From a virus, in the IMG/VR virus record IMGVR_UViG_3300029267_001426, positions 1-53,865 of that record: a stretch of 53,865 nt of DNA; one strand, given 5' to 3'. A program made the position numbers and the translations under genes. Position 1 is the first letter of the stretch. Every line of letters begins with the position of its first letter. Positions 5,425-48,754 of the stretch are shown in pieces. Below the pieces are notes generated by a model. The model did not search any database. It saw nothing but the letters and a program-made list of their open reading frames with translations, and was not told where the DNA came from.

Positions 5425-6763
5425 GGTCATCCTTGTGGGCCTTGGCCTGGCAGCCTTGACCTGGCTGGGGTCCATGGCCTGGGATGTGATCTTTCTCAGA
5501 ATGCGCCGCTGGCAGATTCACCAGGTCAAGCTGGGGGCCTTAAGGCACAAGGCTGCCATGGCAGCATTCAAACAGCTGGCCACTGACCCCAATGGGCGTG
5601 GTGGCTGGGTCTTGACGTCCACTGGGGACATCTTGCATGACCTGGACAGCCCAGCTGAAAGAATCCTGCTGGCAGCCAGCAGGGCCAGCAGGGCCACCCA
5701 GGCCCAGGTCCTGAACCAAGACCCTGAACTGGTGGACCCTGACCCTGTGCCCCAGCTGCCAGAATACTTGCCATCAGACAAGGTCATCAGGGGCCAGCAG
5801 CTGACCTATAGGTCCCTGATTCTGGGCCAAGGCCCTGATGGCCTGGTCCAGGCTGGGATGGACAAGCTGGTCCACTTGGCTGTGGGTGGGTCCAGTGGCT
5901 GGGGGAAATCAATGATGCTCCGCTGGGTGGCCTATCAGCTGGCCAAGTCTGTGGACATGGTTCAGCTGGCCCTGGTGGACCTTGAGGGTGTCACCCTGGC
6001 CCCCTTTGAAACCTGTGCAAGGACCCTGTGGCCAGTGGCTGAAAGTGGGGCTGGGGCCTTGAGGCTGGCCCAGGCCCTGACTGATGAACTGGACCACAGG
6101 AAAGACCTTTTTACCCAGTTCAGGGACCAAGGTGTTGACAGCCTGGCTGCCTATAACAGCCTGGCTGACCAGCCCTTGTCCCCAATTGTGCTGATCGCCG
6201 ATGAAATGTCAGCCCTGTTGGAGGATGCCAAGGTTGTGGATGCTTTCAGGCCCTTGATCTTTAGGTCCAGGAAATATGGAATCTGGAATGTCTGGGGCGG
6301 CCAAGACTGGAAAGCTGGCACGATGCCCACAGCAGTCAGGAACCAATTCAGCAGCCGCATGCACTTTCATGCCATGTCCAGCAGCCAGTCCAGGGTCTTG
6401 CTGGGAATGCCTGGGGCTGAACACTTGACCACAGCTGGCAGGGCCTTGGCTGTTCTGCCCGGGCGGCCGCCGATTGAATTTCAGGCCCCCATCTTGGGTG
6501 ACAATGACATCAGGTCCATCATAGGAAATGGCCCAGTCAATGACTGGCCAGACTGGCATCCCCCTGGGGGCTGGGACAATGCTGCTGATGAATGGGATGC
6601 TGAACAGGCCACCCTATATGACCAGGTCAAGGATGCCCTGGCTGCTGGGGCTGACAACCCCACTGCCATCTGTAGACATCTTAAGATGTCAGCTGGTGGT
6701 CAGAACTGGTATAAAATCAAAGACATCCTGGCCACCATCCAGGAAATGGAACCCAGGGCCTAG
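5396..6763 (+). CDS. FtsK/SpoIIIE-family DNA translocase-like ATPase, membrane anchored
   Basis: N-terminal TM helix, Walker A GGSSGWGKS, Walker B IVLIADE, and RKYGIWNVWGGQ. A C-terminal segment (LYDQVKDALAAGADNPTAICRHLKMS...) looks like a winged helix. RBS is AGAAAGG. Confidence 0.8.
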   Translation: MWNLMIWILRVILVGLGLAALTWLGSMAWDVIFLRMRRWQIHQVKLGALRHKAAMAAFKQLATDPNGRGGWVLTSTGDILHDLDSPAERILLAASRASRATQAQVLNQDPELVDPDPVPQLPEYLPSDKVIRGQQLTYRSLILGQGPDGLVQAGMDKLVHLAVGGSSGWGKSMMLRWVAYQLAKSVDMVQLALVDLEGVTLAPFETCARTLWPVAESGAGALRLAQALTDELDHRKDLFTQFRDQGVDSLAAYNSLADQPLSPIVLIADEMSALLEDAKVVDAFRPLIFRSRKYGIWNVWGGQDWKAGTMPTAVRNQFSSRMHFHAMSSSQSRVLLGMPGAEHLTTAGRALAVLPGRPPIEFQAPILGDNDIRSIIGNGPVNDWPDWHPPGGWDNAADEWDAEQATLYDQVKDALAAGADNPTAICRHLKMSAGGQNWYKIKDILATIQEMEPRA

Positions 6764-6767
6764 TCTA

Positions 6768-6828
6768 CTACTCCTTACCCTGGCCCCTTACAGGGCAGGA
6801 ACAGGCCCCTGGGGCCTGTAAGGAGTAG
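6768..6828 (+). terminator. Compound stem-loop after the FtsK-like gene
   Basis: 11-bp arms ctactccttac / gtaaggagtag enclose an inner palindrome caggcccc-t-ggggcctg. There is no U-tract. The CCGACCAAG motif and the next RBS follow immediately. Confidence 0.4.
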
Positions 6829-6857
6829 ACCGACCAAGACAGAAAGGGAAACCAAAG

Positions 6858-7331
6858 ATGAAAAAGACCAAGAACATGACCCTGCTGCTGGCAATTCTGA
6901 TGGCTGTCCTTGTGGGGGGCTGTGTCCCGACTCAGCCCAAGCCAAGTGAATTGGCCATGGCAAGCATAGTGGCCCAGCAAGAAATGGCCAAGGCCCAACA
7001 GGCCCAGGCCGAGACAGACCAGGCAGCCTTTGACCTTTTGACCTTTGTGGCTGCCCAACAGAATGAACTGGCTATGGAAATCGCCCAGACCAATTCCTAT
7101 GTCACCAAAGAAACCACTGATGCCTTGCTGGCCCTGGCACTCGAGGAACACCAGGCCAGGGTGGAATGGCGTGAATACTGGCAGACCATTGGCTATGTTA
7201 TCCTGGCCATCACATTCATCACCCTGTTCATCTTGCTACTGATAACATGTGAGGACCCAGGCTGGCTGCCCCGGCGTCTGGGCAAAAGGACAGTCACTTA
7301 CAGGGTCAGGGGGCAAGATGACCCCAGCTGA
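6858..7331 (+). CDS. Lipoprotein with C-terminal TM helix
   Basis: The signal peptide ends in the lipobox LVGGC. RBS is AGAAAGGGA. The middle is coiled-coil-like and the C terminus has the hydrophobic segment IGYVILAITFITLFILLLI. Confidence 0.75.
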   Translation: MKKTKNMTLLLAILMAVLVGGCVPTQPKPSELAMASIVAQQEMAKAQQAQAETDQAAFDLLTFVAAQQNELAMEIAQTNSYVTKETTDALLALALEEHQARVEWREYWQTIGYVILAITFITLFILLLITCEDPGWLPRRLGKRTVTYRVRGQDDPS

Positions 7332-7620
7332 ACAGGAAATCCAGGCTGCCCAGGCCAGGGCAAAAAAGGCCCTGGTCAGGCCCCTGGGCATTGACCCTGA
7401 TGCCAAGAATCCCAGGCTGCTGGACATCAAGCCTGACCCTGACAAGGTCCTGGCTGAGATTCACACCGACCTGTGGTCAAGTCTGTGGTCAGCCTGTGGC
7501 AGAAATCCTGACCTGGTCAAACAGGTCATGGCTGCCCTGGCTGACCCTGATGTGGTCCACATCACAGTCACTGCTGAAAGGGCTGACATCATGATTGAAC
7601 AGGATGTGGACCATGTCTGA
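7318..7620 (+). CDS. Hypothetical protein (100 aa)
   Basis: This is the first ATG that clears most of the upstream gene, overlapping it by 14 nt. The upstream part of track ORF 7249..7620 lies inside the lipoprotein gene. Confidence 0.55.
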   Translation: MTPAEQEIQAAQARAKKALVRPLGIDPDAKNPRLLDIKPDPDKVLAEIHTDLWSSLWSACGRNPDLVKQVMAALADPDVVHITVTAERADIMIEQDVDHV

Positions 7621-8428: not shown

Positions 8429-8430
8429 AC

Positions 8431-9072: not shown

Positions 9073-9365
9073 CCCAGCCACAGCAGCTGGACATGCTGGC
9101 CTGCCTCGAGCTCGCCCCCATCTGGCATGAATCCACACCAGACCAGGGATTCTGGGCCTGCCCTATCTGCTACAATCCCAAGCCCAGATTGAATGTGGAC
9201 CCCTGGTTCCACAGCCTGACCTTTCAGCCCCCTGACTATACAGTGGGCCTGTGCAAGCCCTGTGGCTATGCTGCCAGGTTCCCTGTCAAGTTTGGGGGCA
9301 TCCACAAAGATGACCAGGTCCCCCCTGACCAGGTCTGGCAGATAACAGAACAGGGCAGCCACTAG
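9069..9365 (+). CDS. Small Zn-ribbon protein (CPIC...CKPC)
   Basis: GTG start in a GTGTGA overlap with the upstream stop. An alternative ATG is at 9093. This is the last gene of the rightward block. Confidence 0.5.
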   Translation: MTQPQQLDMLACLELAPIWHESTPDQGFWACPICYNPKPRLNVDPWFHSLTFQPPDYTVGLCKPCGYAARFPVKFGGIHKDDQVPPDQVWQITEQGSH

Positions 9366-9403: not shown

Positions 9404-9406
9404 CTG

Positions 9407-10162: not shown

Positions 10163-10906
10163 CTAGTCTGGCCAGGTCAGTTCAGGTCTGGCCCTTTCCA
10201 GTTCCTGTCTGAACATTGCCCTGAATGCAGCCATGTCCAGCTTGCAGCCATCCACAGGGCCTGGTGGATCGATCGGTGGGTCCTGATCGCCGATGGCCAC
10301 ATGGACCAGGCTGGCATGGTCCAGGATGACATCAGCATGCTTGGATTTCCATTTATTCCATCCCCGCAGACAGACCACCAGGCTGTCAGCCATGGCCATG
10401 ATGGGTGGGGTTTCCAGGACCTGGAATTCAGCCCCCACATAGGCCCAAGGGGTCCAGACTGTGCCAGGGGTCCACTGGCCAGCCCCCCGGTCCCCCACCA
10501 GGTCAGCCTGTCCCCAGGGGTTCAGGCCCAGGCTGATATACATTTCACGCTCACTGACCCTGGGGTCATCCCTGTTGGAACACCATGCCTGGACATTCAT
10601 GGACAGCTGATAGAACTGGCCAGGCTGGATGCCCTGCTGGACCACTTGCATGACCCCAGCGTCCATGGTCCTGTGGAACACAAAGAAACACTGGCTGGAC
10701 GTCCCATTCTGGACCCTATAGGGAAACTGTGCCCCCACCAGTTCCTTGTATTCTGGCCTGGCTGTGGGTCCCTGGTGCTGTTCCTGGGGGACACTGGACC
10801 TTTCTTTCCAGACAGGCTGCCAATGCTGGGACAGAATCCCCTCTGGGAAACTGGCCTGGGAATAGGGGCCATCAAGGTTGGGATTCTGGATCAAATTCTG
10901 TGACAT
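10163..10906 (-). CDS. Carbohydrate-binding (CBM4/9-like jelly-roll) protein
   Basis: The N terminus NLIQNPNLDG...W..W is typical of CBM_4_9 modules. AGAAAGGA lies 5 nt before ATG 10906. The C-terminal 22 aa are shared with the next gene upstream. Confidence 0.5.
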   Translation of the reverse strand: MSQNLIQNPNLDGPYSQASFPEGILSQHWQPVWKERSSVPQEQHQGPTARPEYKELVGAQFPYRVQNGTSSQCFFVFHRTMDAGVMQVVQQGIQPGQFYQLSMNVQAWCSNRDDPRVSEREMYISLGLNPWGQADLVGDRGAGQWTPGTVWTPWAYVGAEFQVLETPPIMAMADSLVVCLRGWNKWKSKHADVILDHASLVHVAIGDQDPPIDPPGPVDGCKLDMAAFRAMFRQELERARPELTWPD

Positions 10907-10935
10907 GTGGGTCCTTTCTGGTGGCAATGGCCACC

Positions 10936-20764: not shown

Positions 20765-20860
20765 TCAGAAAGCCCCCTGGGCAAAAGTGTGGCAGATTTC
20801 CTGCCAAGTTTGGATCATTCCCTGCTCAGAATCGCTCCTGACAAGCGTGTTTCTGGCCAT
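20765..20860 (-). CDS. Possible coupled mini-ORF (31 aa)
   Basis: ATG in a TGATG overlap with the upstream stop. Its own stop lies 3 nt before the next ATG, so it fills an otherwise empty 98-nt gap. It is below the track length cutoff. Confidence 0.3.
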   Translation of the reverse strand: MARNTLVRSDSEQGMIQTWQEICHTFAQGAF

Positions 20861-21738
20861 CACAGCCTGGCCATTCTGGGTGGGGCACGCCGGACCAGTT
20901 CCTTGACCATTGGGTCCAGTTTTCTGGGCAATTCCACTGTCCCCAGTTCTGGGGTCCCTGAAATAGTAGACCAGCCAGACTTGACCAGATTATACCACTG
21001 GGCCACTTGGGTCATGGTCGCCCTGACAATCAAGTCAGGGGGACTGGTGGACACTCCCCAGACCCCTGTGACCCTGACCCTGTCCATGCCTTTGGTCCAG
21101 GTCTGCTTTGTGCCTGGGCTTTTGTTGTTCACATCCAGCCGCCTGATGGGGTCATTGGTCAGGGCATTCCTTGGATACCTGACCCAGTCAGTGGATGCCC
21201 AGCTGGTATATGTCCCGTCTGTTTCCTCGACCTCTACCAGGGAAATGCTGACTGCTGGCCAAGGCAGCCACAGGCTTGCCCTGCCATTTCCATCAATGGT
21301 TCTGGCTGATGACCCGCTGGCCATGTAGGCCCCAGGTTCAAGACCCTTGTATTGATCCACCAGCCTGGACACTGCCACAGCACAGGACCACAGGACCTGG
21401 TCCCACTTGGGGCTGATCGCCGATGACCCAGACCCAGTGGACAGTTCCTGGCGCACATCAAAGGCAGTACAATAGGCATCAATTGTGCCACCCTGCTGGG
21501 CATCAGACTTGTCAGACTGCCCTGGGCTGCTGCCCCAGTAGGCCACTTTATACCAGGTATCACTGTCCCCATCTGGGTCCACATAGCTATAACCGGACGT
21601 CTGGGCCACCAGTGTGACAGTCCCATCCAGTGTGGTGAAATCCCCATCCTGGGCAGTGTCTGTGAACACTCGGATCAATGTGTAACCCTGGGCAATCAGA
21701 TTGTCAATGTCAGCCGCTGTGATTTCTAGTCGGATCAT
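20860..21738 (-). CDS. Head-tail connector (gp6-like adaptor) with extra N-terminal beta domain
   Basis: The central region YCTAFDVRQEL...WDQVLWSCAVAVSRLVDQY resembles gp6-type adaptors. ATGA overlap with the upstream gene. Confidence 0.5.
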   Translation of the reverse strand: MIRLEITAADIDNLIAQGYTLIRVFTDTAQDGDFTTLDGTVTLVAQTSGYSYVDPDGDSDTWYKVAYWGSSPGQSDKSDAQQGGTIDAYCTAFDVRQELSTGSGSSAISPKWDQVLWSCAVAVSRLVDQYKGLEPGAYMASGSSARTIDGNGRASLWLPWPAVSISLVEVEETDGTYTSWASTDWVRYPRNALTNDPIRRLDVNNKSPGTKQTWTKGMDRVRVTGVWGVSTSPPDLIVRATMTQVAQWYNLVKSGWSTISGTPELGTVELPRKLDPMVKELVRRAPPRMARL

Positions 21739-27057: not shown

Positions 27058-27084
27058 TGATGATCGCCGATGGTCAGCCGAGGT

Positions 27085-28521
27085 CTAGATCAAGATGTTC
27101 AGGATGCCTGCTGTGTGGGTGTTTGTGGACCTGGTCCCATGGGCAGCCACAGCCTGTCTGAAACTGGTGACCATCATATACACGCGCCGACTGATGTCCC
27201 TGTCCACTTCCACAGTCACAGACCGGCGGAACCCAAGGAACCACTTGTCCCTGTTGAACAGGGTCAGGCTGCCCAAGGTGTTGCTGGCAGCAGTGGCGCT
27301 GACCTTGCCGTCAGACTCGCCCAGGGGATGGCTGACACTGGGCAGAATCGGGATGCCCCGATAGGCAGCCAGCTGCCCAGTCAGGACCACAGCATTGGAC
27401 CCAAACTTGTCCAGGGTCAAGGTGTGGTCAAGGTTCAGCAGCCCTGACAGATAGGTGGAAATGTCACAGACCATGGCCACCCGGTCTGGCCTGACAGCAT
27501 ACTTGCCCATCTTGACCAGGGCCGCCCGGATCATGGTGTCAGACACTGCCCCGCCACTGGCATCATAGGTCTGGCTGGTGTTCTCAGCAATCCACTGCCG
27601 CCGCAGCCCTGCCTGGCCATTGGTCAAGTAGTAGCTGTCACTGGCCGGGGCAGCATCGTCACTGTTGATGTTCCCAGTGGCAGTGGCTGTGCTGTCAGCA
27701 TTGATGGTGAAAGCATCAATCTGTTCAGCGCCCTCCCTGGCCAGGGTCGCCCGCAAGGTGGGGGCCATAGCAAAGGCCGCATCTTCTTCCAGGGCATAGT
27801 CCCAGTTTTGTTCTGCCACTTGTTCAGTGGATGTCATCACTGACTGGGCTGTGGTGGGGTCCTCAGCCGTGACAGGAACCCCAGCGGAACCCTTTCTGAA
27901 AGTGACAGTGGTCAGACCCAATGGAACGTTGAAAGGGTCAGTGGGCATGGGGATGACTGGGATGGCCCCAGCCACCAGGCTGGGGGGGAAAAAGTCCTCC
28001 CATAGCTGGGCAGCCAGGTCAGTGGGGACCCATTCATCCCCAGCCCCAGTTCCGGTGGCAGTCAGCAGCTTGATGACATTGCCCATGTCCTGGCTGGGCA
28101 GCCGGACCTTGTCATCCCCAGGCATGTGCCCTTTCTGTTCCTTGATGGTGTGCTGGGCTTGCAGCATGACAGCTGCCAGATGAAAGTCCACTGGCTTGAC
28201 CTTTTGGCCGCCATACCAGGCATAGCCATCCTTAGTCATGTTCTGGACCAGATGTCTATACCTGTTGTCAGCCAGCAGCCTGACTGATTCTGGGCTGTCT
28301 ACACTGTAGGCCCCAATGGGCGTGCCGCGCACAGGCTGACTGTTCAGCTGTTCCTTGACCTGGGCATCCACCAGGGCCTTGATCTGGTCCCCAAAGGTGT
28401 CCACGATAGTGGGCCAGTCCAGGGTGGCCCGGTCGCCGGCGCTGTTGTGTTCTTTCACTGTGGTGGTCAATTCCTGAATGCCTTGCAGCAATTCAGCCAT
28501 GGTGATGTCTTGTTCAGACAT
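27085..28521 (-). CDS. Major capsid protein, HK97 fold
   Basis: 478 aa with an N-terminal coiled-coil delta-like region, then the typical HK97-family core (…YALEEDAAFAM…FTINADS…MVCD…LTLFNRDKW…). RBS is AGAAAGGA. It follows the protease gene. Confidence 0.9.
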   Translation of the reverse strand: MSEQDITMAELLQGIQELTTTVKEHNSAGDRATLDWPTIVDTFGDQIKALVDAQVKEQLNSQPVRGTPIGAYSVDSPESVRLLADNRYRHLVQNMTKDGYAWYGGQKVKPVDFHLAAVMLQAQHTIKEQKGHMPGDDKVRLPSQDMGNVIKLLTATGTGAGDEWVPTDLAAQLWEDFFPPSLVAGAIPVIPMPTDPFNVPLGLTTVTFRKGSAGVPVTAEDPTTAQSVMTSTEQVAEQNWDYALEEDAAFAMAPTLRATLAREGAEQIDAFTINADSTATATGNINSDDAAPASDSYYLTNGQAGLRRQWIAENTSQTYDASGGAVSDTMIRAALVKMGKYAVRPDRVAMVCDISTYLSGLLNLDHTLTLDKFGSNAVVLTGQLAAYRGIPILPSVSHPLGESDGKVSATAASNTLGSLTLFNRDKWFLGFRRSVTVEVDRDISRRVYMMVTSFRQAVAAHGTRSTNTHTAGILNILI

Positions 28522-30033: not shown

Positions 30034-32399
30034 TACACATAGCTCCACATCTGGTCTGGGCTTGCCCCAGCCACTAGGTAAACAGCATCACACCGACATT
30101 GTATATTCTCAGCTGGCACAGTCCCCATCCTGGGGGCCAGCATCCTGTCAGCCCCTATCTGGAATTGGTCATCCAGACCAATGGGGGCTTTGCTATAGGT
30201 CAGATGGGCATCAAAGTGGGTGTCCCTGGTTCTTTCGTCCATAGCAGCCAGCCATGTTTTCTGTTCAATGACCCCAGACTGTCTGGCTGATTCCTGCCTG
30301 CCAATGGACCTGGCTTTCCCCATTTCTGTTCTGGCAATTCTCTGCCTCTGCCAGTCCTCAGTCCTTAGCCCAAAGACATTGTCAGTTCTGATGCCCAGTT
30401 CTTTCTGGGTCTGCCAGGCTGTCCAGCCATTGTCAGCAGCATCTGTCAACAGCTGCCGCAGGGCCTTTTCAAGCTGTTCCAAGGTGGCCCCATTGATGTC
30501 ATCAGCAAACTTGAACCGCATGTCCTTGATGGCCTGCTGAATGTAGGGGACAGACATGTCAAAGGGGACATCAATGGCCAGTTTTGCCAGCACATCTGCC
30601 CCAGCTGCCCTGGTCATATCAGTATACAGGGGTTCATAGGCCAAGGCAAAAAACAGGACCCATTCATCCAGGTCAAAAAGGTCCTTGGCTGTGCTGGGGA
30701 TGTGGGGTTCCCTGCCCTCTGGGACATCCTCAGCCAAGGCAGCCACAGCCCTGGCCACAGCCTTGGCCTGCCTTTCCAGGTCCCTTTCCAGCTGGTCTGC
30801 CATCCTATTTTCAAAGGGCATGGACACACCCTGGATGGATTTCCACAGGGCCTTGTGGACCTGGCCACCATATTCTGGCCCCTGGGGCTGGACCTTGATC
30901 TGGGACACTGCTGCCCTGACCTGGGCCAGCTGTTCAATGGCATCACTGGCATCAGCTGTGATCTGGATGGCTGGGCCTGGGCCATCGGCTGTCAGGACCT
31001 GGCCAGGAACCCACAGTCCAGACATCCTGTCTGCCAGCTTGTCTGCCAGGCCATCCAGGGCCTGGGTGACAGACTGGTCAATCATCCCCTGAACCTGGGC
31101 TGGTTCCATGCCAGTGGGGGCTGTTCTCTCAGCTGCTGCCAGGATGGGCATCACTCCAATGGGCACAAAGCCCACATCCCCACCAGGGACTGGCCCCAGG
31201 TCTAGGCCCAGCCTGTCATTGATCATGTTCCAAGGGATGCCCATGGACCAGTATTTCTGGGCAGCATCAGCCTTGACTGTGATGTCCTCTTGGACAGCCT
31301 TGACTGTTGAAAGGTCAGTGGCCACCCTTTCCCCAGCTGTCAGCATGGGCCTGGTCCTGGTGAAAAAGGACGACAAGGTCAGGTCCCTGGCCCTGATGAA
31401 TGGCAGCAGGGTCAGCAGCCACAGCCACTGGTGTGCCTGGTCCATGTTTTCATAGGTGTCCTTGCCCCAGCCCATGACCTCGTCTGGGATGCCCAGGATG
31501 CTGCCAACAGCCTGCCGACTGTTCCCCCTTTGTTCAAGCCATTGGACGTCAACAGGGGGAAAGCTGAAAGACTTGATGTCTGTGACCCCATGTTCTAGCA
31601 CGATCGGTTTATGCCAGTTATCTGGTCCCTGGTGTTTCTCAGTCAGGATGGCCAGATATTCATCCCTTTCTGTGGGTCCCAAGCCCTCTGGGGCAATCAA
31701 GGCATAGTCTGGCCTGGCGCCATTTTTCAGAAACCTCTGGGACCACTGCTGGGCATAGATGTCAATGGTGACATCCTCCCTGGCAGCTGAAATGGGGGAC
31801 AAGCCCCGCCAAGCTGACAGGGGATTGACATACTTGTCATGGATGACCTGGTCCCTGCCTAGATTCACATCGTCAGCAGTCTGGTCAGTGTAACCAGCTA
31901 CAATGGGAAAGCCCAGCCTGGCCTGGGTTTCATCTGGAATGACCAGCATCTGGTCAGGTCTGCGCGCCCACAGTTCAGCTGGCTGGCCAGCCCTGTCATC
32001 AATGACCCTGATGAAAGATTCCCCACCCAGCAACTTGTGTAAACAATAGGACTGCCACAGGTCTGCTGGTTTCTCAGATTCATTGACATGGCCCAGCAGC
32101 TGGGTCAGGGGATGGCTGTCCTGGGGTTCCCCATCAGAATTGACCACCCTGACTGGCAGGGCTGCCACAGAATTGGCATAGATGGTCACAGCCTTGGCCA
32201 CCCAGACATAGCTTTGATAGACTGTGGCCCAGCCCACATATTCTGAAATCTGCTGCTGGAATCCCTGGTCAGCAGATGAACTGTATACATGTTGCCGCCC
32301 CTCGAGTTCAGGGTGATGGCTGATTGCCTTGCCAGTCAACAGCTGCCAGGCTGCCCTGGCCCTTTGCAAAAAAGTCATCTGGTCCACTTGTGTTGTCAT
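30033..32399 (-). CDS. Portal protein fused to a Mu F / SPP1 gp7-like head morphogenesis domain
   Basis: The N-terminal 480 aa or so is HK97-type portal. The C terminus has IARTEMGKA...DERTRDTH...IQCRCD, typical of Phage_Mu_F. ATGA overlap with terL. Confidence 0.85.
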   Translation of the reverse strand: MTTQVDQMTFLQRARAAWQLLTGKAISHHPELEGRQHVYSSSADQGFQQQISEYVGWATVYQSYVWVAKAVTIYANSVAALPVRVVNSDGEPQDSHPLTQLLGHVNESEKPADLWQSYCLHKLLGGESFIRVIDDRAGQPAELWARRPDQMLVIPDETQARLGFPIVAGYTDQTADDVNLGRDQVIHDKYVNPLSAWRGLSPISAAREDVTIDIYAQQWSQRFLKNGARPDYALIAPEGLGPTERDEYLAILTEKHQGPDNWHKPIVLEHGVTDIKSFSFPPVDVQWLEQRGNSRQAVGSILGIPDEVMGWGKDTYENMDQAHQWLWLLTLLPFIRARDLTLSSFFTRTRPMLTAGERVATDLSTVKAVQEDITVKADAAQKYWSMGIPWNMINDRLGLDLGPVPGGDVGFVPIGVMPILAAAERTAPTGMEPAQVQGMIDQSVTQALDGLADKLADRMSGLWVPGQVLTADGPGPAIQITADASDAIEQLAQVRAAVSQIKVQPQGPEYGGQVHKALWKSIQGVSMPFENRMADQLERDLERQAKAVARAVAALAEDVPEGREPHIPSTAKDLFDLDEWVLFFALAYEPLYTDMTRAAGADVLAKLAIDVPFDMSVPYIQQAIKDMRFKFADDINGATLEQLEKALRQLLTDAADNGWTAWQTQKELGIRTDNVFGLRTEDWQRQRIARTEMGKARSIGRQESARQSGVIEQKTWLAAMDERTRDTHFDAHLTYSKAPIGLDDQFQIGADRMLAPRMGTVPAENIQCRCDAVYLVAGASPDQMWSYV

Positions 32400-34954: not shown

Positions 34955-36358
34955 CTATGCCTGGACCCCTGAAAAGGCCCTGATGAATTCTGCCCTATAG
35001 AATCGGGCTGGACTGGGCAGTCTGTTTCTGATGGCAGCCTTGATGCCCATCCCATCCTGGAAAGCCAGCTTGGGCCTTTCACAGATGTGGTCAGGCAGAA
35101 TGCCCCTATAGGCCAGGGACAGGACTGCCTTTTCCTTTTCGTGCTCAGCAGGCCCCCTGACAGCTGCCCTGGAAAGGCCCAGGGCATACTGAACCAAGCC
35201 CTGGGACAAAAAGGGTAGTCTACATTCTACACCATAGGCCATGAATGCTTTGTTAGCCCTGGCGAAATTTTTCCTATGCTGCCCCAAGAAAAGGCCCCGC
35301 CGATAGGCATGCCAGCCAGATGAAATGACCCCATGATAGCTGAAACCATAGCTGGCCCACAGTTCGTCTGAACCCTCCCCAGAATAGGTCACCTTGAACC
35401 CATCCTGGGCCATGGCCTTGGCCAAGTGTAGGCAGGGCCAGCCAATTTCCACTTGGGCCTTGTGGGGCATTTCAATGATCTGGACCACCCTGGCCAGGTC
35501 ATCCCTACCAGGGCAAGGGACTGGGATTTCTTTCAGATGGACACCCAGCTGGCCGCAGATGTGCCGAGCAGCAGCCAGGTCCTTTGAATGGGGATTATAG
35601 ACAGCAGTATAGGCAGTCACATCCCTGAAATGCTGGACCAGATGCCATAGAACAGCCGATGAATCAATGCCCCCAGAAATCAGGCAGCAGACAGGGACAT
35701 CAGACAAGGTTCTGGCCAGGACCCCATCCTTGACCAATGTCTTGACCTGGACTGATGCCTGGACCAGGTCATCTGGCAGCCTGCCTGGCTGAATCTCAGC
35801 AAAGGGCCTGGCAATCATCCCATCCTTGTGGGCAGACACCACATAGCCAGGCTGAACCCAGGAAACAGACCTGGGATGGCAGCCCATGGCCAGCAGGGCC
35901 TTGATTTCAGATGCAAAGCAGAAAGGCTGCTGCTGGCTGATGTGGACTGGGATTTCCCCAAAGATGTCCCTGGCCACAAAGACCTGGCCATCTGCCCAGG
36001 ACCAGGCCATGGCAAACATCCCATCAAACTTGGGCAGGGCATCCAGGCCCCATTCATTCAAAGCCGCGGCTATAATCTCAGTGTCCCCAGTGGTCCTGAA
36101 CTGGTGGCCGAGCTCGAGCAATTCAGCCTTGATCTGGGCACAGTTCCACAGTTCCCCATTATAGACCAGGTCCAGGCCATCCCTGTGGAATGGCTGGTCT
36201 GACCTGGGCAAGGGGTCCAGAATAGCCAGCCTGGTGGCCCCCAGAAAGGCTGACCCAGACTTGACCAGCCCCTGGCCATCAGGCCCCCTGTGGACCAAGG
36301 CAGCCATGCCCTGTAGGGTGGCCTTTTCTGACCTGAACCCGCCGACTATACCACACAT
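34955..36358 (-). CDS. Asparagine synthetase B-type glutamine amidotransferase / amidoligase (as a separate gene from the internal ATG)
   Basis: MCGIVGG (Ntn Cys2), HRGPDGQG, RLAILD, YNGELWN, GMFAMAW, PP-loop CLISGGIDSS and YSGEGSDELW. AAGGTGG lies 7 nt before ATG 36358. Confidence 0.7.
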   Translation of the reverse strand: MCGIVGGFRSEKATLQGMAALVHRGPDGQGLVKSGSAFLGATRLAILDPLPRSDQPFHRDGLDLVYNGELWNCAQIKAELLELGHQFRTTGDTEIIAAALNEWGLDALPKFDGMFAMAWSWADGQVFVARDIFGEIPVHISQQQPFCFASEIKALLAMGCHPRSVSWVQPGYVVSAHKDGMIARPFAEIQPGRLPDDLVQASVQVKTLVKDGVLARTLSDVPVCCLISGGIDSSAVLWHLVQHFRDVTAYTAVYNPHSKDLAAARHICGQLGVHLKEIPVPCPGRDDLARVVQIIEMPHKAQVEIGWPCLHLAKAMAQDGFKVTYSGEGSDELWASYGFSYHGVISSGWHAYRRGLFLGQHRKNFARANKAFMAYGVECRLPFLSQGLVQYALGLSRAAVRGPAEHEKEKAVLSLAYRGILPDHICERPKLAFQDGMGIKAAIRNRLPSPARFYRAEFIRAFSGVQA

Positions 36359-37522
36359 CAGACAGCCACCTTGGCCAGGACCTGGTCCCTGATCGCCGAT
36401 GCAAGATGGCACATCATAAGGGGGGGGGACTGCCCTGCCCAGCCTTTCCCATCGCTTATTATAGGACCCTGTCAGCTGGAAATCTGCTGGGAAAGAACAG
36501 ATGGCCATCACTTCTGGGATGGTAAACTTGCGCCGCCTGGGGGATGTGGGCTGGCCAGCCTGGTCCTGGTCCCTTTCTATGTATAGATGGCCTGGGCCTG
36601 CCTGCCTGACTGTGGGGGCTGGCCTGCTGGTGAAATCCCCCATGCCCCAGCTGCCCCCTGTGTCCTCGATTGCCCGGACAGTCCCAGCCAGGGCATCAGC
36701 CACAGTATAATAGTAGGGCAAGGGGCTGGGCCAGGCATGGTCCACATCCAGGTCATCCCTGATGCCCTGGAAAAATAGCCTTTCCCTGGACTGGGGGACA
36801 CCCAGCCACTGGGCATCAAGTTTGACCACCTTGACCCTATAGCCGCAATCTTTCAGCAGGGCCAGAATCTGCAAGAAATAACCCTTGGCCTTGCCCCTGA
36901 CCAGCCCTGGGACATTCTCAGCCAAGAATACCTTGGGCCTGATGCCCTTGACCAGCCTGGCATATTCCCAGAACAGGTCATCTGTTCTTTGCTGGGTGTC
37001 AGAATATGCTTTCACCTTGCCCCAGTCCTTTTCCCTGTGGCCAATGACTGAAAAGGACGCACATGGGGGGCTGCCATCCATCAGGTCAAGGTCACCCTGC
37101 CCCAGGCCGATGGCATCAAGGATTTCAGCAGCTGTGACCTGTCTGATGTCCCTGGTGTCAAGGATGCTGCCTGGGTGATTCAGCCTGTAGACCTCTTGGG
37201 CAGCTGGGACAAATTCATTGGCCCATAAGACCTTGAACCCAGCCATGCGCAGGCCGAGACAAGAACCACCAGCCCCAGAAAAGGTGGAAATGGCCCTGAA
37301 CCCATTCCAGGGGACCTGTTCAATGTCTGCCATGCTGGGCAGCTGGTATGGTGGCTTGAATGTCCTGTCTTTTCCAGGCACTATTTCACCCTCTAGCCAA
37401 TAGTGTGATAGATTGTCCCCACAGATGCCCCCAGCCAAGATGGCTGGGCTGGGCTGTCTGTCCAGGTCAAAACGCTCCACCATGGGTGTCATCCCATTGG
37501 GGTTATGGTGACAAAGAATCAT
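34955..37522 (-). CDS. Continuous ORF as assembled: C5-cytosine DNA methyltransferase-like domain fused in frame to the AsnB-like domain
   Basis: There is no stop between the two halves in the given sequence. ATG 37522 is in an ATGA overlap with the ParB-like gene. Alternative starts are 37540 and 37333. The fusion depends on the 9-nt homopolymer at 36420..36428. Confidence 0.6.
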   Translation of the reverse strand: MILCHHNPNGMTPMVERFDLDRQPSPAILAGGICGDNLSHYWLEGEIVPGKDRTFKPPYQLPSMADIEQVPWNGFRAISTFSGAGGSCLGLRMAGFKVLWANEFVPAAQEVYRLNHPGSILDTRDIRQVTAAEILDAIGLGQGDLDLMDGSPPCASFSVIGHREKDWGKVKAYSDTQQRTDDLFWEYARLVKGIRPKVFLAENVPGLVRGKAKGYFLQILALLKDCGYRVKVVKLDAQWLGVPQSRERLFFQGIRDDLDVDHAWPSPLPYYYTVADALAGTVRAIEDTGGSWGMGDFTSRPAPTVRQAGPGHLYIERDQDQAGQPTSPRRRKFTIPEVMAICSFPADFQLTGSYNKRWERLGRAVPPPYDVPSCIGDQGPGPGQGGCLMCGIVGGFRSEKATLQGMAALVHRGPDGQGLVKSGSAFLGATRLAILDPLPRSDQPFHRDGLDLVYNGELWNCAQIKAELLELGHQFRTTGDTEIIAAALNEWGLDALPKFDGMFAMAWSWADGQVFVARDIFGEIPVHISQQQPFCFASEIKALLAMGCHPRSVSWVQPGYVVSAHKDGMIARPFAEIQPGRLPDDLVQASVQVKTLVKDGVLARTLSDVPVCCLISGGIDSSAVLWHLVQHFRDVTAYTAVYNPHSKDLAAARHICGQLGVHLKEIPVPCPGRDDLARVVQIIEMPHKAQVEIGWPCLHLAKAMAQDGFKVTYSGEGSDELWASYGFSYHGVISSGWHAYRRGLFLGQHRKNFARANKAFMAYGVECRLPFLSQGLVQYALGLSRAAVRGPAEHEKEKAVLSLAYRGILPDHICERPKLAFQDGMGIKAAIRNRLPSPARFYRAEFIRAFSGVQA
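36358..37522 (-). CDS. C5-cytosine DNA methyltransferase-like enzyme (predicted carboxymethyltransferase). The stand-alone form needs an 8-nt homopolymer.
   Basis: Motifs: I FSGAGGSCLG, IV SPPCASFS, VI LAENVPG, VIII QSRERLF, IX RKFTIPEVMAICSFPADF and X LGRAVPP. With one C fewer the C terminus reads AVPPLMMCHLASAIRDQVLAKVAV and stops at TGA 36358..36360. Confidence 0.6.
36420..36428. repeat. G9 (C9 on the coding strand) homopolymer inside MTase motif X
   Basis: This is the longest G/C run I saw in the window. It encodes the PPP of GRAVPPP. Confidence 0.9.
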
Positions 37523-38124
37523 CTGGGCTGCCCAGACCATTCATAGCCACAGCTGGGGCATCTGTAGTCTGTTTCCAGTTCATCACCATATTCCTGAAAG
37601 GCCTCTGGGGCCTGGTCCTGTTCAGCCAGCCGCCGAAAAAGGGCCAGGTCATCAGTGTCCACTGTCACAGGCAGCTGGTCTGCTGTGTTCAAGGTTTCCA
37701 AGAACTGGGCATAATTGGCATCATAGACCCTGCTGATGTCCAGCTGGGTGACATCCCCACCAGCCATGACCAGGCTGTTGTGATCGATGCTATAGGCCCA
37801 GGCAGCATGTTCACTGGCAGCATCCACACCAAAGATGACCGGGACTGCCCAGTCATCAGATTCCTGTTCAAGCAAGATGCCCCTGGGCACAGGGTCCCCC
37901 TGGCCTTTCATCCAAGTCAGGGCCTGGATTCTGCCATTGCCAGCCACTATGCCACCCTTGCCACCATTCAGGGTGGGTTCCCACTTGGGTGGGTCCTTGA
38001 ACCCATGCCGCTTGATTGAATCAATTATGGAACCAAGGTCATGCAGTTTGACATTCTGGGCAAACAGCAGGCATGTGGCAAGTGGGACATATTCAAGGCG
38101 CAATTTCTCAGCAGGGCTGGACAA
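37519..38124 (-). CDS. ParB N-terminal (ParB/Srx-like nuclease) domain protein with C-terminal Zn-ribbon
   Basis: LRLEYVPLATCLL...NVKLHDLGSIIDSIKRHGF...VAGNGRIQAL matches the ParB-like fold pattern. TTG start 7 nt after AAAGGA. The C terminus has CPSCGYEW. Confidence 0.7.
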   Translation of the reverse strand: MSSPAEKLRLEYVPLATCLLFAQNVKLHDLGSIIDSIKRHGFKDPPKWEPTLNGGKGGIVAGNGRIQALTWMKGQGDPVPRGILLEQESDDWAVPVIFGVDAASEHAAWAYSIDHNSLVMAGGDVTQLDISRVYDANYAQFLETLNTADQLPVTVDTDDLALFRRLAEQDQAPEAFQEYGDELETDYRCPSCGYEWSGQPR

Positions 38125-40759: not shown

Positions 40760-40792
40760 CAGGCCCCCTGGGCCTAGAAAAGGAACCTGACC

Positions 40793-41170
40793 ATGACCTA
40801 TGAAAGCCATGAACTGACCGATGCTATGAACCAGGCCCAGCTGGCCTATGCCCAAGCTATGTGGGCTTGTGTGGACCACATCAGGGGCCAGCTTGGGATG
40901 CTGTGCAAGCCTGATGGGTCCCCTGACCTGGATGGGGCCAATGCCCTGGATGTGGGCAGGCTGAATGATGGCAGCTGTGACCCTGGGGCTGTGGCTGCTG
41001 AGATTGAAACCCTGCGCGCCAAGCTGGATGCCCTGCTGTCCCTGCTGATAGGGATGCCCCACACCCAGGCTGTGGACTGTGGCCAGTGTGAACTGGCAAT
41101 GATGACCAAGATGACTGCCAGTCAGCCTGGCCAGCCCATGGGTCCCTGGTCCAAGCCCATTGGGTCCTAG
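40793..41170 (+). CDS. Hypothetical protein (125 aa)
   Basis: AGAAAAGGAA lies upstream of the ATG. Confidence 0.65.
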   Translation: MTYESHELTDAMNQAQLAYAQAMWACVDHIRGQLGMLCKPDGSPDLDGANALDVGRLNDGSCDPGAVAAEIETLRAKLDALLSLLIGMPHTQAVDCGQCELAMMTKMTASQPGQPMGPWSKPIGS

Positions 41171-43574: not shown

Positions 43575-43577
43575 AAC

Positions 43578-44288: not shown

Positions 44289-45175
44289 TCCCCTTGACAG
44301 ACAGAAACATCCCATTGAATGCCTGGCCTGAGACAGGCATGCTTGAACCCCAGCCAGAACCGGCCGAGGCCAGGCAGGCCAGGGCCTGGGGCTTGTATCA
44401 GATGACAGGCTGGCACATCTGCGACCTGGTCATGAATGATGACATGGCCCCCCAGGAATATGCTGACTGGGTCCACCTTTTCAAGGCAGCCCCCACCATG
44501 CTGGTGGCCATCCAGGCTGATGAACTCTACCACCAGCATGTGGTCTTGTGCCCCATCTGCCGGACTGGGGACCTGTGCCCTGCTGGCCAGGCCATGAATT
44601 CCCAGGCCCAGAAAGCCAAGGACCTGGCCATCCTGCTGGCCAAAGGTGTGGACATTGGCATCCTGACCAAAGAATACATCAAGGCAGCCAGGCTGGACCT
44701 GGGACCCACACCAGGCCCCTGGATTGACATCTGTGATGCTGCCCCCCACTATGGCCAGACAGTCTGGGCCTGGTGTGAAAAGGCCCCCCAGTATAGTGGG
44801 CCTGGGCCTGCTGTTGTGCGGCGAGTAGGGGCCAGATTCAAAGCTGTCAGCCACCCTGACCGGCCCTGGGTCCACATCAGCCACTGGATGCCCATACATG
44901 AACCTGACAGCCCACAGCCCCTGTCCTTTTCTCAGCATGTGGGCTGGGTGGCCATTGATGACCAGGAACCCCACCAGGACACTGACATCCTGGTCTGGGT
45001 CTGGGACGATGGCCAGGGCTTTCCCATAGTGGCCCAGTACAGTCCCCCCACTGACCAGGTCAGCATTGACCATGGGAACCCCTGGACATTCCCGAACCTG
45101 GCCACCAGGCCAGTCTATGATGACATCACCCACTGGATGCCCCTGGGGCATCCCACAGAAAGGAACCCATCATGA
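44285..45175 (+). CDS. DUF551-like repeat protein
   Basis: AGAAAGGA RBS and ATGA overlap with the upstream gene. Modules end ISHWMPIHEPD and ITHWMPLGHP. Confidence 0.6.
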   Translation: MIPLTDRNIPLNAWPETGMLEPQPEPAEARQARAWGLYQMTGWHICDLVMNDDMAPQEYADWVHLFKAAPTMLVAIQADELYHQHVVLCPICRTGDLCPAGQAMNSQAQKAKDLAILLAKGVDIGILTKEYIKAARLDLGPTPGPWIDICDAAPHYGQTVWAWCEKAPQYSGPGPAVVRRVGARFKAVSHPDRPWVHISHWMPIHEPDSPQPLSFSQHVGWVAIDDQEPHQDTDILVWVWDDGQGFPIVAQYSPPTDQVSIDHGNPWTFPNLATRPVYDDITHWMPLGHPTERNPS

Positions 45176-46197
45176 CAGTCTGGATCAAGATTGATGAATC
45201 TTTGCCCCCCACAGAAACAGTGGTCCTGGGCTGGATCGAGGAACCCGACAAGCCAGCCATGGCTTTCCCTGCCTTTGCCAAGCTGACTGCTGCTGGGGAC
45301 TGGGAAATTGGGGACCCCAGCCCAGCCATGCAAGTCACCCACTGGGCCTGGATTGCCAGCCCCCAGGAAATGGCAGATGCCCCCACTGATGCCAAGGCCC
45401 TGACTGCCCAGGCCCAAGCCCTGAGAATGGCAGCTGAACATGTAGTCAAGACCAGCCCTGGTGACAAGGATGCCCTGGACCTGGCTGCCCTGATGACCAA
45501 CACAGAGGCCATCATGCGCGCTGGTGATGAACTGATAGCAGCCATGGCCCAGCCCATCCAGGTCCTGGATGACCAGCCATTCCAAGTGGTCAACAGCAGA
45601 CAGGATGGCCAGCCAGATGAATTCCAGACAGCCCCCTGGGCTGGGGATGCCTATCTGGATGAATTGCAGCTGGACCTTGAAACCATATTCCTGGCAGGCC
45701 ATCTGGACCAGCTGCCTTTCCAGATTCTGGATTCTTTGCGGCTCCACTTTGGGGCAGATGGCCAAGATGACACCAGCATGGACCTGACCATTGGCCAGCT
45801 GTCTGTCCTGGATGCCTTTGCAGCCTTTTGCCAATGGAACCATGACAGGGTCAATGTTCACCCAAAGACCCTGGCCTGGGCCTTGAATGCCATCCTGATG
45901 GCCTGCCTGGGCCAGCCCACTGACCTGGTCCACAGGGCAGCCTGGACAATGAGAATGGCAGCCATCCAGCTGGTGGACAAGGACCTGGCTGCCAAGGTGG
46001 ATGACCTGGGCAAGCAGCTGGCAGAGGCCACCCAAGTGGATGACAAGCTGGCCATGGACATGCAGCTGTCAGGGACCCTGGTCTTTCAGAAACACTATGC
46101 ATGCCAAGGCCAGGGCTGTTCAGCCTGTGACCAGGGCTGGGTCTGGGACTGGGCAGTCCATGACCTGGGCCATGGCAAGGGCCAAGGGGCTGACTGA
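45172..46197 (+). CDS. Hypothetical protein with N-terminal DUF551-like module
   Basis: AGAAAGGAA RBS. The N terminus reads WIKIDESLPPTETVVLGW...VTHWAWIASP. Confidence 0.6.
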   Translation: MTVWIKIDESLPPTETVVLGWIEEPDKPAMAFPAFAKLTAAGDWEIGDPSPAMQVTHWAWIASPQEMADAPTDAKALTAQAQALRMAAEHVVKTSPGDKDALDLAALMTNTEAIMRAGDELIAAMAQPIQVLDDQPFQVVNSRQDGQPDEFQTAPWAGDAYLDELQLDLETIFLAGHLDQLPFQILDSLRLHFGADGQDDTSMDLTIGQLSVLDAFAAFCQWNHDRVNVHPKTLAWALNAILMACLGQPTDLVHRAAWTMRMAAIQLVDKDLAAKVDDLGKQLAEATQVDDKLAMDMQLSGTLVFQKHYACQGQGCSACDQGWVWDWAVHDLGHGKGQGAD

Positions 46198-47111
46198 TGA
46201 CTGGCCAGACTGGCTTTGTGGGGGAACAGATTCAAGATGCAGCCCTGCTGTCTATCTCAGATGCTGGGGTCTGCCACTTTCGCTGGGACGATGACCCAGC
46301 CCATGTGCTGAATCTGCCTGCCACCAGCTGTGCCAGGGGTTCCCAGGTTGGGGACACTGGGGTCCTGACCAGATTCAAGGATGGACCCCAGCCCCAAGAC
46401 TGGGCCTGGCGTTTTGAACCTTATCCCAAGGATGGGCCTGTCCAGTCCATAGTCCCCAGCAGCCTGGTCAAGGTCACACCAGTGGGGGCCAAGGTCCTTT
46501 TTGAACTGTCCTATGCTGAATGGTCTGCCCAAGTGTCAAAGATGTGGGACCTATACCGAGCCATGCCATTCATCCTGGGGGACCTGATCGCCTATGGTGA
46601 ACACAGATGGGGCCATACTTATGACCAGGCCCTGGATGCCACTGACTATGAATATGACACCCTGGCCAGTTTTGTCTGGGTCTGTTCCAATGTGCCCTTT
46701 GAAATTCGCAGACCCAGCCTGACCTTTGAACACCACAAGGCTGTGGCCAGGTCATCCATCCCCATCAAGGACAAGGTCCATTATCTTGAACTGGCTGAAC
46801 AAAAGGCCCCAGGCTTTGAATCTGCCAGGGCAATGAAACAGACCATCAGGGACAGGCTGGGCCTGTCCAGTGGCCAGGAAAAGATGGCCTGTCCCATCTG
46901 TGGTGAACTAGAATGGAACGTGAAAGCCTTGCATGGTGTGACCTGTGGCCACTGTGACACCCATGCTGATGAATTGGTCAGACAGCTGCTAGACCTGACA
47001 GCTGACTATGATGACTTGCTGGCCGAGCTCCAACAGGCCAGGCAAGAAATAGCAGCCCTGGAAAGGGCAAGAAAGGAATCCCATGTCCCTAGAATACTCG
47101 GCCCTAGATGA
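46197..47111 (+). CDS. Hypothetical protein (304 aa) with Zn-ribbon and coiled-coil tail
   Basis: TGATG overlap with the upstream gene. It contains the conserved-looking block LGDLIAYGEHRWGHTYDQALDATDYEYDTL...LTFEHHKAVA. Confidence 0.6.
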   Translation: MTGQTGFVGEQIQDAALLSISDAGVCHFRWDDDPAHVLNLPATSCARGSQVGDTGVLTRFKDGPQPQDWAWRFEPYPKDGPVQSIVPSSLVKVTPVGAKVLFELSYAEWSAQVSKMWDLYRAMPFILGDLIAYGEHRWGHTYDQALDATDYEYDTLASFVWVCSNVPFEIRRPSLTFEHHKAVARSSIPIKDKVHYLELAEQKAPGFESARAMKQTIRDRLGLSSGQEKMACPICGELEWNVKALHGVTCGHCDTHADELVRQLLDLTADYDDLLAELQQARQEIAALERARKESHVPRILGPR

Positions 47112-47589
47112 AAACACCATCATTGAACTGGCTGGGGAAAAGACTGCTGCTGAACTGGCTGCCCTGTTCACAAAGAATGGCACGCCAAGGACTGCCCGCA
47201 GTGTATACCAGAAAGCCAGGTCCCTGGGTGTCAGATTCAGGGGGGAACCTGAACCCTGGGATGATTCTGAACTGGACGTCTTGAATGCCTGGGCAGGCAA
47301 GGAAAGCCCCAAGGCCATCGCCGGCCGATTGCCCACCAGGACCAAGGCTGATGTCTTGCACATGGCCAGGTTCCTTGACCTGGACCTGACTGTCCTGGCC
47401 ACCTTTGAAAAGTCTGAAAGGGTCTGGGGCAGGGTCCCTGCTGAGAAAGCCCAGGATGTGGCAGATGCCCTGAATGGCCTGGCCAAGTTTTTTTTGGCTG
47501 AACAGAAAGGGGACTGCCTGGTCCAGACCATCCTTTATGCCTGGGAACAGGCCCAGCTGGTCCAGCTGCCCAGAAAGGGGGACCTGTGA
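47083..47589 (+). CDS. Hypothetical protein, possible HTH regulator (168 aa)
   Basis: AGAAAGGA lies 5 nt before the ATG. It overlaps the upstream gene by 29 nt. Confidence 0.55.
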   Translation: MSLEYSALDENTIIELAGEKTAAELAALFTKNGTPRTARSVYQKARSLGVRFRGEPEPWDDSELDVLNAWAGKESPKAIAGRLPTRTKADVLHMARFLDLDLTVLATFEKSERVWGRVPAEKAQDVADALNGLAKFFLAEQKGDCLVQTILYAWEQAQLVQLPRKGDL

Positions 47590-48278
47590 ACCTGAACACT
47601 GACAATCTTGAACTGGTGATGGATGGCCCACAGTTCCTGGTCACAAAGCGTGAAATCTGCCCAGACTGCAAAGGCAAGGGCAAGATCAAGCATCCTGACT
47701 GGGAAAGGCTTGACCAGGTCATGGCTGACCCTGCTTTCCAGGATGTGTCTGACAAGGGCCACAGGATTGCTGTCCTGATGAAAGAAATGTGGCCTGATGG
47801 GAACCAGCCCCCCACTATCATCCCCTGTGACACATGCCAGACCGAGGGGATCAAGGAAAGCCTGGTCCCCCTGGCCAAGGCCCTGGCCCAGCTGGGCTGG
47901 CAGGCCCCACTAGAAATCAAGGGCAGGCCAGAACTGTGCATGGATTTCCCTATGGACCATGCTGAACATGACCTGGCTGAACTGGACATCAATCCCATGA
48001 TCAAGGGGCTGCTGGTTCAAAGGGGGGGCATCAGCACAGTGGAACAGCTGCTGGACAAGCTGTCACAAAGCCCCCAGGCCATCACTAGCATCAGGGGCAT
48101 TGGGCCTGCCTATCTGAACCAATTGCTTGAACAGCTGTGGGCCTGTGGATTCCCCAAGTGGGGACCCTGGCCCTGGCAAGCTGGGGATGGCATTGACCAG
48201 ACCTGGTGGCAGCCCACACCAGAACAGGCAGCAAAAAGAAAGGAACAGGCACAAAAGGCCAATGACTTGCCATTCTGA
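47586..48278 (+). CDS. Protein with DnaJ-type CxxCxGxG zinc fingers and a helix-hairpin-helix motif
   Basis: CPDCKGKG and CDTCQTEG, then ITSIRGIGPAYLNQLLEQL. GTG start in a GTGA overlap after GAAAGGGGGA. Confidence 0.55.
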   Translation: MNLNTDNLELVMDGPQFLVTKREICPDCKGKGKIKHPDWERLDQVMADPAFQDVSDKGHRIAVLMKEMWPDGNQPPTIIPCDTCQTEGIKESLVPLAKALAQLGWQAPLEIKGRPELCMDFPMDHAEHDLAELDINPMIKGLLVQRGGISTVEQLLDKLSQSPQAITSIRGIGPAYLNQLLEQLWACGFPKWGPWPWQAGDGIDQTWWQPTPEQAAKRKEQAQKANDLPF

Positions 48279-48528
48279 ATTTTATGAACTGGCCCTGATG
48301 GCCCAGCCCAGGGGCCTGAAAGTGGTCATTGAATTCTGGGCATCAGACCAGGGCATCCCCACCATTGATGCTGACACCACAGTCACCATCACTGAACAGG
48401 CTGCCAAGCTGGCTGGCCAGCTGCCGATCGTGGTCACAGCCAGGGGGCCAGCAGCCAAGATGCTGACTGTGGCCACTGAGATTGTCAAAGGGTTCCCCAG
48501 GCTGGATGGGCAGCAGGCCCAAGAATAG
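48262..48528 (+). CDS. Hypothetical protein (88 aa)
   Basis: This is the first ATG near the upstream stop. The RBS is weak and an alternative ATG is at 48298. Confidence 0.4.
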   Translation: MTCHSEFYELALMAQPRGLKVVIEFWASDQGIPTIDADTTVTITEQAAKLAGQLPIVVTARGPAAKMLTVATEIVKGFPRLDGQQAQE

Positions 48529-48538
48529 GAACAGACAG

Positions 48539-48754
48539 ATGAAAGGTCCCCAAGAACAGAAAAGAATCAATGCCATCAAGACCACAAAAAGGTGGGGGCT
48601 GGCCCTGACCCTGGCAGCCTTTTTCAGCCTGCTGATTATGGCTGGGCACATCTGGCCCCAGGATGCCAAGGACTGGCCCTTGTTGGTCACAGGGGCTGGC
48701 TTTTCCCTGGGCTTGTCCTGGCTGATCGCCGATGGAAAAGACTGGCTGTTCTGA
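48539..48754 (+). CDS. Small two-TM membrane protein (71 aa)
   Basis: AGGA lies 8 nt before ATG 48539. The hydrophobic segments are WGLALTLAAFFSLLIMAG and LLVTGAGFSLGLSWLI. Confidence 0.55.
   Translation: MKGPQEQKRINAIKTTKRWGLALTLAAFFSLLIMAGHIWPQDAKDWPLLVTGAGFSLGLSWLIADGKDWLF

Follow-up and report, generated by a model that had tools for sequence, protein, structure and literature searches.

Six copies of a 12-mer in a complete phage genome

The window analysed here is a whole IMG/VR virus record (IMGVR_UViG_3300029267_001426, 53,865 bp) with a 144-bp terminal overlap that closes it into a circle of 53,721 bp, and it is the complete genome (53.7 kb) of an uncultivated phage. Its genes lie in three orientation blocks, on the plus strand from 1 to 9.4 kb, on the minus strand from 9.4 to 38.8 kb and again on the plus strand from 38.8 to 53.7 kb. 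Dispersed over these blocks is the 12-mer TGATCGCCGATG, the subject of this study, which is found in six exact copies on the plus strand (starting at 6192, 10284, 21414, 27061, 36390 and 48723) and in none on the minus strand when both strands are searched. The recount agrees with the first-pass annotation of the sequence, as does the presence of a C before five of the six copies; otherwise there is no flanking similarity among them. A one-mismatch copy reported there on the plus strand is real, but its start was off by one (the quoted 14-mer begins at 46584, not 46583). The degenerate search of both strands that the annotation had suggested recovers this copy at 46585 together with a minus-strand copy at 341-352 that had been missed, so that the plus to minus count becomes 7:1 with one mismatch included. 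The copies and their contexts are the following, where ORF stands for open reading frame.

6192..6203, plus strand: copy 1, sense, encoding L-I-A-D within the Walker B motif (VLIADE) of an FtsK-like gene
10284..10295, plus strand: copy 2, antisense to the minus-strand ORF 10163-10927 (AIGDQD; IGDQ)
21414..21425, plus strand: copy 3, antisense to a head-tail adaptor-like gene, 20860-21738 (SSAIS)
27061..27072, plus strand: copy 4, intergenic, 13 nt past the stop codon of the minus-strand ORF 27085-28521, a putative major capsid gene
36390..36401, plus strand: copy 5, antisense (CIGDQG) in ORF 34955-37540
48723..48734, plus strand: copy 6, at the end of the small ORF 48482-48754 (LIADG); a weakly GIY-YIG-like ORF has its ATG 16 nt further on, at 48751
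46585..46596, plus strand: one-mismatch copy TGATCGCCTATG, G9 to T with loss of the second CpG, sense (DLIAYG) in ORF 46197-47111
341..352, minus strand: one-mismatch copy TGATAGCCGATG, C5 to A with loss of the first CpG

The core of the word is a 4-1-4 palindrome (ATCG-C-CGAT) that on direct reading extends to an imperfect 5-1-5 form, and the asymmetric positions T1, G2, the central C and G12 are invariant in all six copies. ATCGCCGAT is confined to these copies and is seen nowhere else in the genome, its complement form ATCGGCGAT has no occurrence on the plus strand, and the sub-word TCGCCGA does not occur beyond the same six places. Around the circle the gaps between copies measure 4.1-12.3 kb, which represents a density of about one copy per 9 kb and a placement more even than random (P 0.013 for the standard deviation of the gaps, P 0.047 for the minimum gap). 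Comparison contigs were taken from the Logan contigs of ten runs holding the phage, without read ends; the copy at 48723 is identical in the contigs of runs X3 and X4, and the variant at 46585 is identical in a contig of X6. The contigs of X5 belong to a strain with patches of about 1-3% divergence at 31450-32100, 36880-37480 and 44590-45470, and natural variants of the phage thus exist.

The mixture of frames and orientations reported earlier, with LIAD in sense in two copies, IGDQ in antisense in two, another frame in one (here SSAIS) and one copy intergenic, was confirmed. Because three reading frames are used and the intergenic copy is unconstrained, coding is excluded as the cause of the repetition, and the sharp 12-bp borders likewise exclude a repeat of the mobile element kind. 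At copy 1 the residue preceding the Asp-Glu pair of Walker B is Ile, Val, Phe or Gly in 16 aligned homologues and Ala only in this phage, which fits selection acting at the DNA level. Copy 3 falls at a variable loop of the head-tail adaptor-like protein, where homologues have KAAIG or ISNVG. Copy 4, free of coding constraint, precedes a GC-rich inverted repeat. Copy 5 sits at the junction between a C5-methyltransferase-like (CmoX-like) part and an AsnB-like part, 19 nt from a C9/C8 homopolymer, and copy 6 would read LADRRW if a long ORF starting at GTG is real. The homopolymer between the CmoX-like and AsnB-like parts is a C9 run in this record (36420-36428) and a C8 run in the X3 and X4 contigs; fused and split forms of the gene therefore both exist in nature. 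Two further readings of the word were dropped. No consistent ORFs follow the ATG if the word is taken as a stop (TGA) followed by a start (ATG), and a promoter or operator does not suit five copies placed inside genes and a sixth placed downstream of a gene.

Over-representation and strand asymmetry of the genome

The first-pass annotation had argued that the word occurs far beyond chance and had pointed to its two depleted CpGs; shuffles, Markov models and the CpG content support this, the two CpGs indeed making the word costly. With up to one mismatch on both strands, eight occurrences are observed, whereas 100 dinucleotide-preserving shuffles averaged 0.09 and never gave more than 1. Markov models of orders 1 to 5, calculated with the six copies masked, expect 0.0003-0.026 exact copies where six are observed, and orders 4 and 5 on the masked genome still expect only about 0.02-0.03. 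The 12-mer is thus enriched more than 200-fold over expectation and is by far the top exceptional word of the genome (z about 115, Markov-3). The observed to expected (O/E) ratio is 0.15 for CpG and 0.35 for TpA, and with two CpGs per copy in a CpG-purged genome the word is especially unexpected.

A closer inspection of short words revealed a marked strand asymmetry that is independent of gene orientation and keeps the same sign in every orientation block. The counts below refer to the whole genome (1-53721).

TCACTG: 41 on the plus strand, 0 on the minus strand
ACCAAG: 25 on the plus strand, 0 on the minus strand
TGCAGC: 21 on the plus strand, 0 on the minus strand
AAAGTC: 18 on the plus strand, 0 on the minus strand
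AGTCAC: 16 on the plus strand, 0 on the minus strand
GTGATC: 25:2
CCGAC: 27 on the plus strand, 1 on the minus strand
TGCCG: 30:1
CCGAG: 32:2
GCCG (complement CGGC): 156 on the plus strand, 42 on the minus strand

The symmetrised expectation for the skewed hexamers is mostly 11-26 per strand (6-45 across models), from which it follows that one orientation of them has been purged. CCG and CGG stand at 279:109 on the plus strand, and the excess of GCCG over CGGC holds in all three gene blocks. The words RGATCY (AGATCT, AGATCC, GGATCT and GGATCC) have no occurrence in the genome, and TGATCN is found 72 times. Models of the masked plus strand favour the observed orientation of the 12-mer 4-12 fold, and the probability of finding six of six copies on one strand is then 0.29-0.62 (Markov orders 2-4). 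For this reason the one-strandedness is not independent evidence for a polar signal of the Chi or KOPS type (KOPS being the FtsK-orienting polar sequences), and the polarity argument that the first-pass annotation had drawn from it is weakened, as the sub-words of the motif share the genome-wide plus-strand bias. The robust facts about the word are its over-representation, its exactness and its dispersal.

In phage T7 the 36 EcoP15I sites are all in one orientation, which evades Type III restriction (PMC3874151). The present genome resembles T7 in purging one orientation of several asymmetric hexamers, here many at once, and the same purge probably also sets the orientation of the 12-mer. However, evasion orients or removes sites of 5-6 bp without enriching them, whereas the 12-mer is strongly enriched. 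A co-oriented Type III restriction site was therefore rejected as an explanation of the 12-mer, since it cannot yield six copies; it fits words of the TCACTG type instead.

Other signals were also seen. CCGACCAAG(AC) is present six times, on the plus strand only (6830, 38663, 38947, 41262, 49943 and 53631), mostly in leaders just before start codons, and looks like a separate expression signal. GGCCGAGCTC is present five times, again on the plus strand only (3307, 22121, 36106, 40048 and 47021); three of these copies encode AEL in frame in plus-strand genes, so that this word is at least partly coding-driven. ARAGORN gave a single call, a doubtful tRNA-Ala(agc) of 91 nt at 40766-40856 on the minus strand between two plus-strand ORFs, without an Rfam match, and the Rfam search as a whole returned none.

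Candidate reader proteins and occurrence of the word elsewhere

Several proteins encoded in the same genome could read the word, and their features are listed here with the ORF that overlaps one of them; helix-turn-helix is abbreviated as HTH and the predicted local distance difference test as pLDDT.

5396..6763, plus strand: FtsK-like double-stranded DNA translocase, membrane-anchored, 455 aa (Pfam FtsK_SpoIIIE, PF01580, E 3e-10; PHROG 1358, E 2e-32)
6593..6760, plus strand: C-terminal three-helix HTH of the FtsK-like protein, residues ~400-455 (predicted helices 394-416, 422-428 and 435-451, pLDDT 80-94)
37519..38124, minus strand: ParB-like protein, an alternative candidate reader (PHROG 620, E 5e-10), directly upstream of the CmoX-like gene
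48751-49317, plus strand: weakly GIY-YIG-like ORF, a candidate nickase (Pfam GIY-YIG, E 0.0015, below the curated cut-off)
49278-49925, plus strand: N6/N4 DNA methyltransferase ORF (N6_N4_Mtase, E 2e-8), overlapping the GIY-YIG-like ORF

The AlphaFold2 model of the FtsK-like protein has a mean pLDDT of 84 and places a membrane helix at the N-terminus. In Foldseek searches its motor matches FtsK on double-stranded DNA (6t8o, E 2e-19) and also 2ius (E ~1e-19). An FtsK-like translocase with a C-terminal DNA-binding domain had been proposed in the first-pass annotation and stands; the winged helix suggested for that domain does not, and is replaced by a three-helix HTH. The HTH is conserved across the FtsK-like homologues, and its likeness to known families is weak (HTH_7, E 0.002; HTH_23; resolvase, transposase and invertase domains; PDB profile matches, E 0.1-0.6). 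The overlap of the GIY-YIG-like and N6/N4 methyltransferase ORFs could correspond to a nuclease-methylase pair. A further ORF is weakly VRR-NUC-like (E 0.005).

The occurrence of the word in possible hosts was evaluated in two sets, together 306 genomes. Five metagenome-assembled genomes (MAGs) with related portal genes contain only 1-6 copies in 1.5-6.2 Mb. In 301 genomes from the phylum of an Anaerolineaceae MAG, selected because several FtsK-like homologues are labelled Chloroflexi, there are at most 23 copies per genome (about one per 200 kb or rarer, on both strands); five of these genomes are unpublished (G043, G150, G178, G232 and G277), and the result is the same without them. DNA uptake sequences and uptake signal sequences reach hundreds to thousands of copies in a host genome, on both strands. 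The uptake-sequence reading raised in the first-pass annotation finds no such copy number in the 306 genomes, nor any multi-copy IMG/VR contig, and a common host repeat carried passively is disfavoured by the same rarity in these genomes. The portal relatives found in MAGs give an inconsistent host inference (Nitratifractor, Planctomycetales, Anaerolineaceae, Calditrichaceae and Brocadia), and the frequent labelling of FtsK-like homologues as Chloroflexi is a host lead only.

Among viruses, a scan of IMG/VR with the 14-mer form CTGATCGCCGATGG gave 119 single chance matches, with at most two copies of the 12-mer in any locus, and 20 kb of the sequence found no counterpart among the GenBank phages by megablast. 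The portal search returned no relative between 58% and 100% identity, and the search with the FtsK-like protein none between ~57% and 100% local identity (~45% over the full length). The nearest phages, with portal identities of 50-58%, were assembled from hypersaline sediment or seawater and have a normal CpG ratio (0.97-1.07); one further locus (L017) is only an identical fragment. The word is phage-specific in these searches, and it goes with the lineage carrying the CmoA/CmoX/AsnB-type module. In PMC12783734, which describes this system, the CmoX that was tested has GC as its target; the tests do not extend to the glutamine-dependent ligase class.

The same slot upstream of the terminase genes is occupied in the relatives by other DNA-modification modules (L008, 4788-8030; L011, 4844-8095; L014, 3983-7134), which include three TAGT genes with a radical SAM/SPASM gene, an N6_N4 methyltransferase with a B12-binding radical SAM gene, and a C5 methyltransferase with an epimerase and Vut_1. 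In L014 and L015 the O/E ratio of GpC is 0.70-0.76. The word GACGCCCTGGC, with four copies in L008, was considered as an analogue and rejected, as on direct reading of the frames all of them encode DALA in one frame and the repetition is coding-driven.

A probable recognition word and its possible readers

Since CpG has been purged genome-wide and yet two CpGs are kept in every copy, selection on the DNA word itself is hard to doubt. The most plausible reading of the 12-mer is that of a cis-acting protein-recognition word under positive selection, which marks the phage DNA at these regular intervals, and one of the phage's own DNA-handling proteins probably binds to it. As to which protein, we infer only tentatively that the reader is the HTH of the membrane-anchored FtsK-like pump, with the 12-mer as its recognition or loading word. 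The pump is favoured because the genome encodes a membrane DNA motor with a DNA-binding domain and because, to our knowledge, every characterised FtsK-family member with a C-terminal DNA-recognition domain (FtsK, SpoIIIE and TraB) reads short repeated words. The C-terminal HTH would bind the asymmetric word, this binding would load the hexameric motor onto phage rather than host DNA, and the bound word would set the direction in which the pump travels, so that orientation would matter.

The closest parallels to such a system are KOPS (GGGNAGGG) with FtsK-gamma, the SpoIIIE recognition sequences (SRS) with SpoIIIE and the TraB recognition sequences (TRS, GACCCGGA) with Streptomyces TraB. As there, one genome encodes a membrane FtsK-family motor with a C-terminal DNA-recognition domain, and the density of the word, whose copies are scattered and co-oriented, is like that of KOPS. 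The present word differs in having 12 nt and not 8, in its candidate reader, a resolvase-like three-helix HTH and not a winged helix, and in belonging to a virus and not to a chromosome or plasmid. It also shows no polarity switch, with the same orientation all round the circle and no skew by replication arm or terminus.

Several observations weigh against the pump as reader. No wing is predicted in its C-terminal domain and FtsK_gamma gives no match there, so that the domain is not a gamma winged helix. KOPS, SRS and TRS are all 8-mers, and no precedent in a phage is known to us. The co-orientation of the copies is largely predicted by the background strand asymmetry, and the one-mismatch copy at 341-352 lies on the opposite strand. 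The word is absent from the loci of the relatives (L008-L016, pieces of 11.5-22 kb with ~50% portal identity), which are too distant for a fair test of conservation. Finally, a complete 59-kb phage (G306) with a homologous FtsK-HTH protein has neither TGATCGCCGATG nor a comparable dispersed exact word; its candidate 11-mers reach only three exact copies and its top word, GAAAGGGGA, is like a ribosome-binding site. Nearly all genes of this phage are on one strand, which makes its skew uninformative and the test a weak one.

Somewhat more doubtful is the possibility that a phage nickase cuts one strand of the mature DNA at each copy, which would make the copies strand-specific nick sites (localized single-strand interruptions) of the T5, phiKMV-like or tf/LUZ24-like kind. 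In phage tf, whose genome has two convergent gene blocks, TACTRTGMC is present 14 times on the top strand and not once on the bottom; consensus sites confined to one strand are likewise found in T5 and in phiKMV-like phages (PMC3517423). The signature is as published: a near-exact word (7-19 nt, 4-14 copies in those phages), over-represented, dispersed and restricted to one strand independently of gene orientation, as here with 6:0 for exact copies. The weakly GIY-YIG-like ORF starting 16 nt after copy 6 and the VRR-NUC-like ORF may be added in its favour. However, no confident nickase was found among these ORFs, the GIY-YIG match being below the cut-off, one-strandedness is expected from the background bias, and the known nick consensus sites are not pseudo-palindromic, whereas this word has a palindromic core. 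That core would suit a dimeric DNA-binding protein, the ParB-like protein or another HTH protein, for which the copies would be scattered sites of loading or binding, much as parS is for ParB, the Noc-binding sites (NBS) for Noc or matS for MatP; the orientation of the copies would then be incidental, fixed by strand-asymmetric word avoidance, in line with the little information that it carries once the background is allowed for. We consider this unlikely. Exact parS, NBS and matS sites of 12-16 bp are known to lie scattered inside genes, and scattered centromere sites are known in prophage N15. Clamps that spread or slide would fit the even spacing, and CmoX genes are commonly found together with ParBc proteins, with no known role given (PMC12783734). 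Against such sites, the word is intrinsically asymmetric and co-oriented, its invariant asymmetric positions not being required by a symmetric dimer, the ORFs scanned include no ParA-type partner, and there is no sequence likeness to known parS.

It is very unlikely that the word acts like Chi in attenuating a host nuclease of the RecBCD/AddAB type, with co-oriented copies no more than 12 kb apart that would shield the tails of rolling circles or permuted ends. Protection of rolling circles by Chi is known, as is the orientation dependence of Chi in lambda. The copies are co-oriented, over-represented and evenly spaced, the replication module comprises an initiator with a DnaC-like loader, an exonuclease and a Rad52-like annealase, and the ORFs scanned contain no recognisable inhibitor of RecBCD. 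Known Chi sites, however, have 5-8 nt and not 12, and the word is rare and on both strands in the 306 genomes searched, a count that speaks for those genomes only and is not decisive. Highly improbable is the absence of any dedicated function, in which case the word would have arisen from extreme compositional sculpting, through repeated use of the few CpG contexts still permitted, and from chance. The low CpG and TpA, the missing RGATCY words, the concentration of the surviving CpGs in GCCGA and GCCGC contexts and the many non-CpG 12-mers that recur 4-7 times agree with it; the order-4 and order-5 expectations, the absence of TCGCCGA outside the copies, the sharp borders and the intergenic copy do not. 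The remaining probability belongs to some function not listed here.

Returning to the FtsK-like pump, it is possible, if decidedly doubtful, that the virus has a KOPS-like system of its own, in which an early-expressed FtsK-family pump reads the phage-specific 12-bp word through a resolvase-type HTH. Such a system would seize the phage DNA and move it directionally, for example to draw the remainder of the genome into the cell or to carry phage DNA across the septa of a filamentous host, and the co-orientation of many short words throughout the genome would reflect this directional reading of the chromosome or one linked to it. Scattered words confined to one strand belong to the few unexplained DNA-level signals in phage genomes, and the function of the T5 nicks is still unknown. 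Here candidate readers can be named within the same genome, namely the FtsK-like pump with its HTH, the ParB-like protein and the GIY-YIG-like ORF. If it is the pump that reads the word, this would be the first phage for which a DNA translocase system guided by sequence has been described.

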